Positions 2,791-4,701 of a DNA stretch of 4,701 nt are shown here, piece after piece. The stretch lies in IMG/VR virus record IMGVR_UViG_2713896783_000005; one strand, given 5' to 3'. The notes under the pieces were generated by a model, which had not been told where the DNA came from, did no database searches, and saw nothing but the letters and a program-made list of their open reading frames with translations. Origin of the DNA: a virus (taxonomy: Duplodnaviria > Heunggongvirae > Uroviricota > Caudoviricetes). Every line of letters begins with the position of its first letter. Position 1 is the stretch's first letter. The position numbers were made by a program, and so were the translations under genes.

Positions 2791-3104
2791 GTGGGTGGAA
2801 GACGTGGTGCCGGGCGGAAATCATGATACTCCGGCAGTGTGCGGGAACGATGAAGGTAAAAAGCGTTGGCGCACTTATCGGACGAACTGAAGCGGCAGTG
2901 AGAACGAAGGCACGGGAGCTGGGCATCAGCATGATGTTACGTGGTGATTTTCACCCGTCGGCAAAATATTCTCAGCGTGATATTGAGCTGGCGCGGCAAC
3001 TGCATCAGAGAGGCATGCAAAGAAGGGAAATTGCCAGAAAATTAGGCATGCCGCTGCGCATAGTGAATAACTACGTTTATTTCGACAGGAGGGTGTCTGC
3101 GTGA
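2787..3104 (+). CDS. Small DNA-binding protein with two tandem GcrA-N-terminal-like HTH modules; start uncertain (GTG 2787, or ATG 2823/2850)
   Basis: Two repeats of the pattern W/Y-x-x-x-E/D-I-x-x-L...G-x-x-x-x-E-I-A/V...LG ([11 protein letters not shown]...[17 protein letters not shown] and [27 protein letters not shown]), resembling the GcrA N-terminal domain as I recall it. GTG 2787 overlaps the upstream TGA (2788-2790) as GTGA. The track's 2700 start would overlap the upstream gene by 90 nt and is rejected. Confidence 0.55.
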
Positions 3105-3328
3105 AAATCCTGTATCAGGATTACGGCCCGGTGGGGCAGGTGGTTATCAGCAGTACTGTAATGGAGTTTCGGAAGCATAACCGTGTGGTGGATGCTGTGC
3201 TGTTAACCTGTCCGGGGATATCGGCGAGTCGTGCAGGTGTGTTTATTATGAAGACGAAATTATATGGCAGTAAGGCGTGGATAAAGAAGGCGTATCGTGT
3301 AGCGTTGCAGGAGGTTAACAGTGAGTGA
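3101..3328 (+). CDS. Hypothetical small basic protein (75 aa)
   Basis: GTG 3101 preceded by AGGAGG (3087-3092) at 8 nt and overlapping the upstream stop as GTGA (3101-3104); about 11 K/R vs 5 D/E; no family recognised. Confidence 0.5.
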   Translation: MKILYQDYGPVGQVVISSTVMEFRKHNRVVDAVLLTCPGISASRAGVFIMKTKLYGSKAWIKKAYRVALQEVNSE

Positions 3329-3632
3329 AATTAAAGAAATGCCGGTAGTTCGTGACGGATATGGCTACTGGACACATCCTGAATATGAAAAATTCTGTGA
3401 TGGTCGGGAATATATTTCAACGGAAGAGTTTAACGCCTGGATGGAGGAAAATAATCTTCAATACGTCCTCTGCTTCAGAGATGAAGGATGTGCTGACCTT
3501 GATGCGTGTGATGCTGATATTTCTGCATGGGAACCGGAACGACCAGAGGGCGATGGCTGGTTTATTGGTTCCATTCATGATACGGAAGATGGCCCGGTTT
3601 GTGTCTGGTTGCGAAATAAGGCTGAAGCATAA
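3321..3632 (+). CDS. Hypothetical strongly acidic protein (103 aa)
   Basis: GTG 3321 preceded by AGGAGG (3309-3314) at 6 nt; overlaps the upstream gene by 8 nt; about 25 D/E vs 8 K/R by my count, Trp/Cys-containing; stop TAA 3630-3632. Confidence 0.6.
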   Translation: MSEIKEMPVVRDGYGYWTHPEYEKFCDGREYISTEEFNAWMEENNLQYVLCFRDEGCADLDACDADISAWEPERPEGDGWFIGSIHDTEDGPVCVWLRNKAEA

Positions 3633-3731: not shown

Positions 3732-3759
3732 AGGAGGCCGCCCGAAAGGGCGGTAAGAA
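3732..3759 (+). promoter_or_regulatory. Structured translation-initiation region: AGGAGG, then a CCGCCC-GAAA-GGGCGG hairpin, then 6 nt to ATG 3760
   Basis: Perfect 6-bp GC stem (3738-3743 with 3748-3753) closed by a GAAA tetraloop; consensus SD AGGAGG at 3732-3737 lies 22 nt from the ATG in linear sequence but about 6 nt if the hairpin forms. Confidence 0.35.
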
Positions 3760-3978
3760 ATGAAACATTATTTAGAAAAAAATTACCCACGAAAGAGCAG
3801 AACAACAGAGTTTCTGTTTTTCATTCTGTTTATAGTGTTGATGATACCGATATCCCCGCTATTACTGGTCTGGATAATTGGAAGGACATTTGAACCAGTT
3901 ATTGAGCTATATACCGATGTGACATGGGAATCATTCAGCGCACTGCACAATAAAATTAATCCGTATAAGGAAAACTGA
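3760..3978 (+). CDS. Small single-pass membrane protein (72 aa), AT-rich moron-like gene
   Basis: ATG 3760; hydrophobic segment FLFFILFIVLMIPISPLLLVWIIG flanked by a basic N-terminus (KNYPRKSR); rare codons (ata, aga, agg, cta, tta) and low GC contrast with neighbours; preceded by a 127-bp AT-rich non-coding stretch. Confidence 0.6.
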   Translation: MKHYLEKNYPRKSRTTEFLFFILFIVLMIPISPLLLVWIIGRTFEPVIELYTDVTWESFSALHNKINPYKEN

Positions 3979-4617: not shown

Positions 4618-4701
4618 AAACGGTTTGCGGGAAAAGGATAGTTAAGTAGAATTGCTGCGGGTGCTTGAGGCTATCTGCCTCGGGCATGAACACCAACGGC
4701 A

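Follow-up and report, generated by a model that had tools for sequence, protein, structure and literature searches.

Background

The Ocr protein of phage T7 (gp0.3) and the ArdA proteins, anti-restriction factors that mimic DNA, are small, very acidic and expressed early by the mobile elements that carry them, and both are elongated dimers. Ral of phage lambda and Lar of the Rac prophage act by altering EcoKI modification and restriction. On Enterobacterales plasmids, the AcrIE9/AcrIE10 anti-CRISPR module is accompanied by a helix-turn-helix (HTH)-like protein (PMC12248084, PMC13530269). Here we describe a 103-residue acidic protein encoded at 3321-3632 on the plus strand of a 4,701-nucleotide (nt) stretch of tailed-phage DNA, IMG/VR record IMGVR_UViG_2713896783_000005; the whole stretch is called the window below. 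A reading of the sequence alone had proposed the protein as a candidate DNA mimic or anti-defence factor, or as an antitoxin. We propose instead, with a probability of about 0.4, that it is an effector that binds a protein of the host or of a rival element, probably through an acidic hairpin, and that its action, or the protein itself, is sensed by the Gop-beta-cII abortive infection system.

The closest described relative is gp45 of phage mEp213 (AFM76385.1), named orf184 and listed as UDP0184 in the supplements of Silas et al. (2023, bioRxiv 10.1101/2023.04.06.535777), whose curators found nothing meaningful for it. In that study, orf184 activates Gop-beta-cII abortive infection: transposon suppressor screens in ECOR59, a natural isolate of Escherichia coli, traced the cell death that orf184 induces to gop and beta, and the effect was reconstituted in a laboratory strain. 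The same authors report that orf184 shares an accessory region with ral, an anti-restriction gene, and that Ocr and ArdA, too, set off cell-death systems, which they read as decoy immunity. Gop-beta-cII also restricts lambda.

We located orf184 by searching for peptides of the family in the supplements of that paper. Aligned from end to end, the window protein and orf184 have 43% identity (BLASTP, E = 3e-29). The two share membership of PHROG 1372, a net charge of -17, the conserved motifs and the order of secondary-structure elements, and each is an early accessory gene of a lambdoid phage. They differ in operon and in one segment. In mEp213 the gene follows closely on N in the early leftward operon and has cIII, kil and abc2 downstream of it, whereas the window gene is read rightward after the replication genes; the acidic insert of orf184 is about six residues longer and helical. 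In lambda, ral is found at about the same point. By analogy with orf184, the window copy may also trigger Gop-beta-cII. The family has thus been noticed once in the literature, through this trigger phenotype, and the window protein is a new member of it. Full-text literature searches found no mention of the RefSeq accession of the window protein, of 'phrog_1372' or of the peptide SIHDTEDG, and no family member was found in the supplements of one machine-learning paper on anti-defence proteins.

A widespread family of acidic proteins

The 103-residue open reading frame (ORF) is a genuine gene and not a chance ORF, because it is annotated in RefSeq in identical prophages (WP_001289673.1, 'hypothetical protein'), it matches PHROG 1372 over residues 1-102 (E = 4.1e-56), and a profile made from its close homologues finds 729 clusters of related proteins. 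Hundreds of homologues align across its entire length. Direct reading of the plus strand places a Shine-Dalgarno sequence, AGGAGG, at 3309-3314, six nt ahead of a GTG start at 3321, and the equivalent starts of homologues agree with this position in the alignment. With its 10 Asp, 15 Glu, 3 Lys and 5 Arg, the product carries a net charge of -17 and has an isoelectric point (pI) of 4.12. The approximate tally of the sequence-only reading, some 25 acidic against 8 basic residues and a charge near -17, is therefore exact, and the clustered acidic run that it quoted, CADLDACDADISAWEPERPEGDG, falls at residues 57-79 (3489-3557, plus strand). This variable segment is shortened in the window protein; its longer counterpart in most family members is an acidic helix.

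How widespread is the family? Those 729 clusters, formed at 50% identity, come from an exhaustive profile search of 1.84 billion representative proteins, and 233 have E <= 1e-10. Sixty deposited phage genomes, from phages of Escherichia, Klebsiella, Erwinia, Yersinia, Pectobacterium, Serratia, Pseudomonas, Burkholderia, Vibrio and Ralstonia, carry a relative, and so do 2,029 plasmids, mostly from Klebsiella, of which 1,759 are conjugative and one is the KPC carbapenemase plasmid pKpQIL. No model for the family turned up in Pfam, NCBIfam or PADLOC, even in scans of 38 diverse members with E as high as 10. The domain's net charge has a median of -14 (5th-95th percentile, -18.6 to -7), and 86% of 130 representatives stand at -10 or below; strong acidity is a trait of the whole family and no peculiarity of this copy.

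Conservation is concentrated in R11-D12, G15, W17-T-H-P20, W40, W70-x-P72-x-x-P75-x-G-x-G-W-F81 and S84-I-H-D-T-E-D-G-P-x-C-x-W-x-R98. All of the motifs that define the family (R-D, G-x-W-[TS]-H-P, W-x-P-x-x-P-x-G-x-G-W-F and S-I-H-D-T-E-D-G-P-x-C-x-W-x-R) are present in the window protein. In two alignments, the His and Pro of the N-terminal motif W17-T-H19-P20 (3369-3380, plus strand) do not vary. Acidity is fixed at some positions (D87, E89 and D90), whereas in the variable segment (columns 54-66) it is a matter of composition.

In temperate phages, many of them unrelated, the gene usually lies in early accessory regions, and it is highly mobile among such regions. Elsewhere, genes for RdgC, exonucleases, RecA-like or Erf recombinases and orphan DNA methyltransferases are among its neighbours. 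Of the representative clusters listed, about half consist of longer proteins. The added domains include Lar-like (three members), Rv2179c-like 3'-5' exonuclease (two), RdgC, Tad2-like and DHHA1, and fusion to such varied domains indicates that the family domain acts as an independent module. Modular fusions of this kind are found in the multi-domain conflict proteins of phages and plasmids. The commonest partner is a segment of about 100 residues, ERQRQ...EGWTPEHDDEH...GELA...WKP...RR-LVKAGALILAEIERLDR (in P0180, P0194, P0195, P0234, P0246, P0253 and P0258), which also forms the C-terminus of many larger phage proteins (PHROGs 6628, 9763, 11504 and 9434); Pfam, PHROG annotations and PDB sequences gave no identification for it. 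The domain occurs twice in tandem in one 305-residue member (P0158), and each copy leads into a short helical extension. In one E. coli prophage (locus L028, 3629-4312) the gene is fused in frame to the ORF upstream, producing a 227-residue reading frame, so longer forms can arise by loss of a stop codon. In a second prophage lineage (locus L029, 4441-4792) two further very acidic ORFs, of 60 residues (PHROG 1997) and 58 residues (PHROG 519), follow the gene on its 3' side; acidic accessory genes therefore cluster there.

Predicted fold and surface charge

An AlphaFold2 model of the window protein has a predicted local distance difference test (pLDDT) score of 82.6, with helices at residues 20-26 and 34-43 and strands at 46-52, 80-88 and 91-99; the acidic segment, residues 57-79, scores low (64-68). 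Compared by the order of secondary-structure elements, it agrees with the published model of orf184 (mean pLDDT 95.6), in which the acidic insert is a confident helix (pLDDT 96). Foldseek searches against viral models returned only uncharacterised family members, and no relative was found among solved structures, either by sequence or by fold.

Geometry was analysed on the AlphaFold monomer of orf184 released by its authors, from which all C-alpha and charged side-chain atoms were transcribed by hand. The model is a flattened globule of 23 x 33 x 41 Å with a radius of gyration of 14.1 Å. Its 23 acidic residues point in all directions and cluster no more than random exposed residues do (mean resultant length of the directions from the centre, 0.18 against 0.18; p = 0.45). 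The majority of conserved residues are buried, including most of the W-T-H-P motif, and R101 and E44 make a structural salt bridge. The chief exposed conserved patch is the hairpin tip H89-G94. Its counterpart in the window protein, H86-D-T-E-D-G91 (3576-3593, plus strand), is the conserved, solvent-exposed tip of an acidic beta-hairpin, 70-89% identical and 78-87% acidic across representatives, and is a candidate interaction site. The product is thus predicted to be a compact cytoplasmic alpha/beta domain with an evenly negative surface, from which the conserved acidic hairpin S-I-H-D-T-E-D-G protrudes.

In the orf184 model, a distance of 14.5 Å between the two conserved His rules out that they share a metal or catalytic site. 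We likewise discarded a zinc site formed by H19, C26, H86 and C94, since the conservation of C26 does not extend past enterobacteria and that distance separates the two His, and a 2H-phosphoesterase suggested by H-D-T-E (HxTx), for which there is a single motif only and no fold match. Matches to Agenet/Tudor domains at E ~1 are noise. Weak PDB matches to DDA1, viral glycoproteins and a lectin are artefacts: WTHPEYEK (residues 17-24, 3369-3392) resembles Strep-tag II, WSHPQFEK, and the spurious matches arise from this resemblance to the tag that those constructs carry.

Proposed role and alternatives

What does the family do? The 103-residue gene has no promoter-like or terminator-like site on either side and therefore belongs to the early rightward transcript, on which it is transcribed together with the replication genes; its product is consequently expected soon after infection or induction. 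We suggest that the product would then bind a protein of the host or of a rival element and block or redirect it. The target would probably be a basic protein that handles nucleic acids or serves immunity, and the outcome would be counter-defence or host takeover by protein-protein binding rather than by copying the geometry of DNA. In cells that carry a P4-type Gop-beta-cII, either this activity or the protein itself would be sensed, releasing Gop toxicity and causing abortive infection. The existence and identity of the target, the hairpin as its interface and the triggering of Gop-beta-cII by this copy are the parts of this scheme that we infer.

Several observations weigh against such a role. 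We know of no direct anti-defence activity, or inhibition of any defence system, for any family member. The trigger phenotype comes from a homologue of 43% identity with a longer acidic insert. Strong acidity is not rare among small early phage proteins: in lambda, NinF has a net charge of -10 over 56 residues and Ea10 of -14 over 122, while the host-nuclease inhibitor Gam has only -8 over 138 and the anti-restriction protein Ral is basic (+3). Homologues on plasmids have a weaker negative charge (net -8 and -6), and their genes are found within the tra operon or after it, outside the leading region where plasmid anti-defence genes cluster. Finally, the screen that revealed the trigger phenotype of orf184 reported no counter-defence phenotype for it (bioRxiv 10.1101/2023.04.06.535777).

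Why would Gop-beta-cII restrict lambda as well? Lambda has no family member (best six-frame profile match, E = 0.3), so the system must either respond to several triggers or guard something that different phages disturb. Restriction of lambda fits the guarding of a host process, and several independent triggers explain it equally well. A bolder and more doubtful version of our proposal is that the family is a new class of broad-host effector of temperate phages and conjugative plasmids, which would neutralise one conserved hub, an immunity protein or a DNA-repair or nucleoid protein, via the acidic hairpin, with Gop-beta-cII as guard of that hub. If true, it would explain why lambda is restricted without a family protein, and the guarded target would be discoverable with the 103-residue protein as bait.

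Among the other explanations, the likeliest, though still unlikely, is that the protein has no part in anti-defence and is an accessory factor in the handling of the element's own DNA (recombination, replication or repair), where it would modulate a partner such as RdgC, an exonuclease, RecA or the single-stranded DNA-binding protein (SSB). RdgC and 3'-5' exonuclease genes recur both as neighbours and as fusion partners, the window gene lies 3' of replication genes, in mEp213 and Erwinia phage 59 the gene is one of those in the early leftward operon, which serves recombination, and plasmid copies sit in or after the tra operon. Yet the gene is dispensable and patchy among closely related prophages, as accessory genes are and as core functions, which are kept, are not; no single DNA-metabolism gene is always linked to it, and the abortive-infection triggers described so far have mostly been immune antagonists or structural proteins. 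We rate lower, as improbable, a true DNA mimic of the Ocr/ArdA type, whose carboxylates would imitate phosphates and fill the DNA groove of restriction or other defence proteins. The net charge and pI of 4.1, the acidity kept across the family, the occurrence of a homologue in the same accessory region as ral, the fusion of some members to Lar-like restriction-alleviation domains and the frequency of DNA methyltransferase genes among the neighbours would suit a mimic. However, the family has no similarity in sequence or fold to Ocr or ArdA, and where those are elongated it is predicted to be a compact globule with evenly spread charge and no lattice of carboxylates. In a rigid-body search with the orf184 model, the best placement brought 8 of 23 carboxylates within 3 Å of B-DNA phosphates; when points were instead placed at random on the same ellipsoidal shell, forty times over, the number was 8.2 +/- 0.8. 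This is a crude test (a monomer of the homologue and straight ideal B-DNA). Nor do we know of restriction-enzyme binding by any family member. The structure prediction and surface-charge mapping that the sequence-only reading had named as a check, the latter made on the orf184 model, accordingly lend no support to its DNA-mimic claim. Ral and Lar are no closer: a homologue lies near ral and three members carry a Lar-like domain, but neither protein is homologous to the 103-residue protein, lambda Ral has the opposite charge, and to our knowledge no activity of their EcoKI-altering kind has been described for the family. The broader idea of an anti-defence-type accessory gene is still reasonable, given a small acidic early protein in a setting associated with counter-defence (orf184 near ral, and activating Gop-beta-cII); the specific mechanisms first proposed, DNA mimicry among them, were not borne out.

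It is very unlikely that the protein binds or degrades a small molecule, such as an immune signalling nucleotide that it would soak up like a sponge, or that it is a small metal-dependent enzyme. Five Trp and two conserved His could be taken to favour this reading, as could the Tad2-like sponge domain and the DHHA1 phosphoesterase domain to which single members are fused, but the distance between the His, the burial of most conserved aromatics in the core, the lack of conservation of Cys26 across the family and the lack of a match to any enzyme or sponge family or fold all count against it. Less probable still is that the protein is the antitoxin or immunity partner of an adjacent gene, either the basic 75-residue gene upstream in the window or a nuclease-like protein on plasmids. 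The 75-residue gene (3101-3328, plus strand; PHROG 1001; product net +6, pI 9.8) is indeed linked to ours, as had been noted from the sequence: its stop codon is the TGA at 3326-3328, and the two genes share the 8-nt overlap GTGAGTGA (3321-3328, plus strand; from the ORF positions), which implies translational coupling. On pKpQIL and other Klebsiella IncF plasmids there is a 4-nt overlap between the homologue and the gene for a basic (net +15) DUF2726 protein, and the homologue precedes a gene for a PLD-family nuclease. The partner is not constant, however. We compared 80 viral contigs that encode a 92-99% identical 103-residue protein, all of them near-identical E. coli prophages. The block of HTH, 75-residue and 103-residue genes is present and constant in 26 of the 80 loci, two others have a non-adjacent relative of the 75-residue protein (39% identical), and 52 lack the 75-residue gene; in 42 of those 52 a Ren-like protein and an unrelated 84-residue protein (PHROG 4030) are encoded upstream, with the same 8-nt overlap. 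The two families also occur in largely different phages. That of the 75-residue protein comprises 101 phage records, mainly Shiga toxin (Stx)-converting phages, Fels-1 and Klebsiella phages; in tallies of organisms, Stx-converting names are missing from the 103-residue list, and phages of Burkholderia, Pseudomonas, Erwinia and Vibrio from the 75-residue list. Neighbours vary by lineage and are all different in phages D6, LASTA, PY54, mEp213, Eho59, Ymer, PseuP_224, vB_RY5, R20L and PSTRCR_117lys. In the 103-residue protein, moreover, neither Pfam searches nor the predicted structure show any of the DNA-binding domains (HTH, ribbon-helix-helix or AbrB) that type II antitoxins usually have for autoregulation. 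With no conserved partner, a toxin-antitoxin pair is rejected for the phages, and the antitoxin claim falls with it.

On plasmids the surroundings differ, and there one setting leaves room for a form of the immunity-partner reading. About 1,500 Klebsiella IncF plasmids show translational coupling of the homologue to a DUF2726 protein that is basic and membrane-anchored and has a restriction-endonuclease-like fold (locus L086, 9336-10946; pKpQIL-IT, NC_019155.1). The gene of a secreted PLD-family nuclease comes next, and the whole set lies between finO and repA. This set may be a nuclease-and-inhibitor arrangement.

Identity with the AcrIE9/AcrIE10 module was considered and rejected. The likeness, an HTH gene followed by two small genes, is superficial. 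The module and the family alike are abundant on Klebsiella IncF plasmids, pKpQIL among them, where the homologue lies between finO and repA and not in the leading region, where acrIE9.2-acrIE10 are presumed to sit alongside anti-restriction and SOS-inhibition genes. Searches of the window proteins against the leading-region ORFs of pKpQIL, with phmmer and the family profile at E up to 10, found nothing in a comparison made across the region rather than gene by gene, and PDB sequences, including the AcrIE10 entries 8JI9, 9M7T and 9UER, did not match the window proteins.

What would the proposed effector teach us? A common gene of E. coli, of phages of Proteobacteria and of some 2,000 plasmids is still 'hypothetical' in every database, and one of its relatives belongs to the small number of proteins known to trigger an abortive-infection system. 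The binding partner of the family would show what Gop-beta-cII senses, and could reveal a mechanism of counter-defence or host takeover common to phages and resistance plasmids. Even if the role proves to be ordinary housekeeping, the family deserves a name, there being no Pfam or NCBIfam model for it.

The prophage locus and minor observations

The window is 100% identical to a Rac-like lambdoid prophage of O157:H7, O26, O121 and other Shiga-toxin-producing E. coli (the enterohaemorrhagic or Shiga-toxin-producing groups, EHEC/STEC). At >=80% nucleotide identity, the 103-residue gene is present in 780 of the 5,426 complete E. coli genomes, and those that have it carry a median of two copies. 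Gene order runs from a cro-like gene through a ydaT-like gene, an O-like/DnaT-domain replication protein with iterons, a P-like helicase loader, DUF1627, an HTH protein, the 75-residue and 103-residue proteins, DUF4014 and DUF551 to hok. The HTH gene (2823-3104, plus strand) encodes a DNA-binding protein by weak Pfam HTH matches, matches PHROG 323, is labelled 'DNA-binding protein' in RefSeq and opens the block that the 75-residue and 103-residue genes complete; the 75-residue gene is a neighbour of ours in this prophage lineage only.

Near the start of the window, 50 N at 421-470 separate two direct copies of 217 nt (204-420 and 471-687; 96% identical), each with the start of the O-like gene. 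This looks like a scaffold gap or an assembly duplication rather than biology. Within the O-like/DnaT-domain gene, a GTCACG-based repeat occurs in eight copies about 10 nt apart, in two clusters (671-709 and 952-1011), and these repeats are probably the origin iterons of this prophage. The same gene contains the 12-nt tandem repeat AGATAAAGATAC at 1001-1027, which encodes a DKDTDKDTD linker.

Downstream, the DUF4014 gene has AGGAGG at 3732-3737, 22 nt ahead of its ATG at 3760. A possible 6-bp GC stem with a GAAA loop in the spacer (3738-3753) might bring the Shine-Dalgarno sequence and the start codon together. At the very end of the window, 4659-4701 gives a partial match to the Rfam sok antitoxin RNA (RF01794; 26.7 bits, E = 0.004), which is under the gathering score and is interrupted by the window end; in an identical prophage a hok/gef gene lies just downstream of this match (locus L001, 10829-10984).
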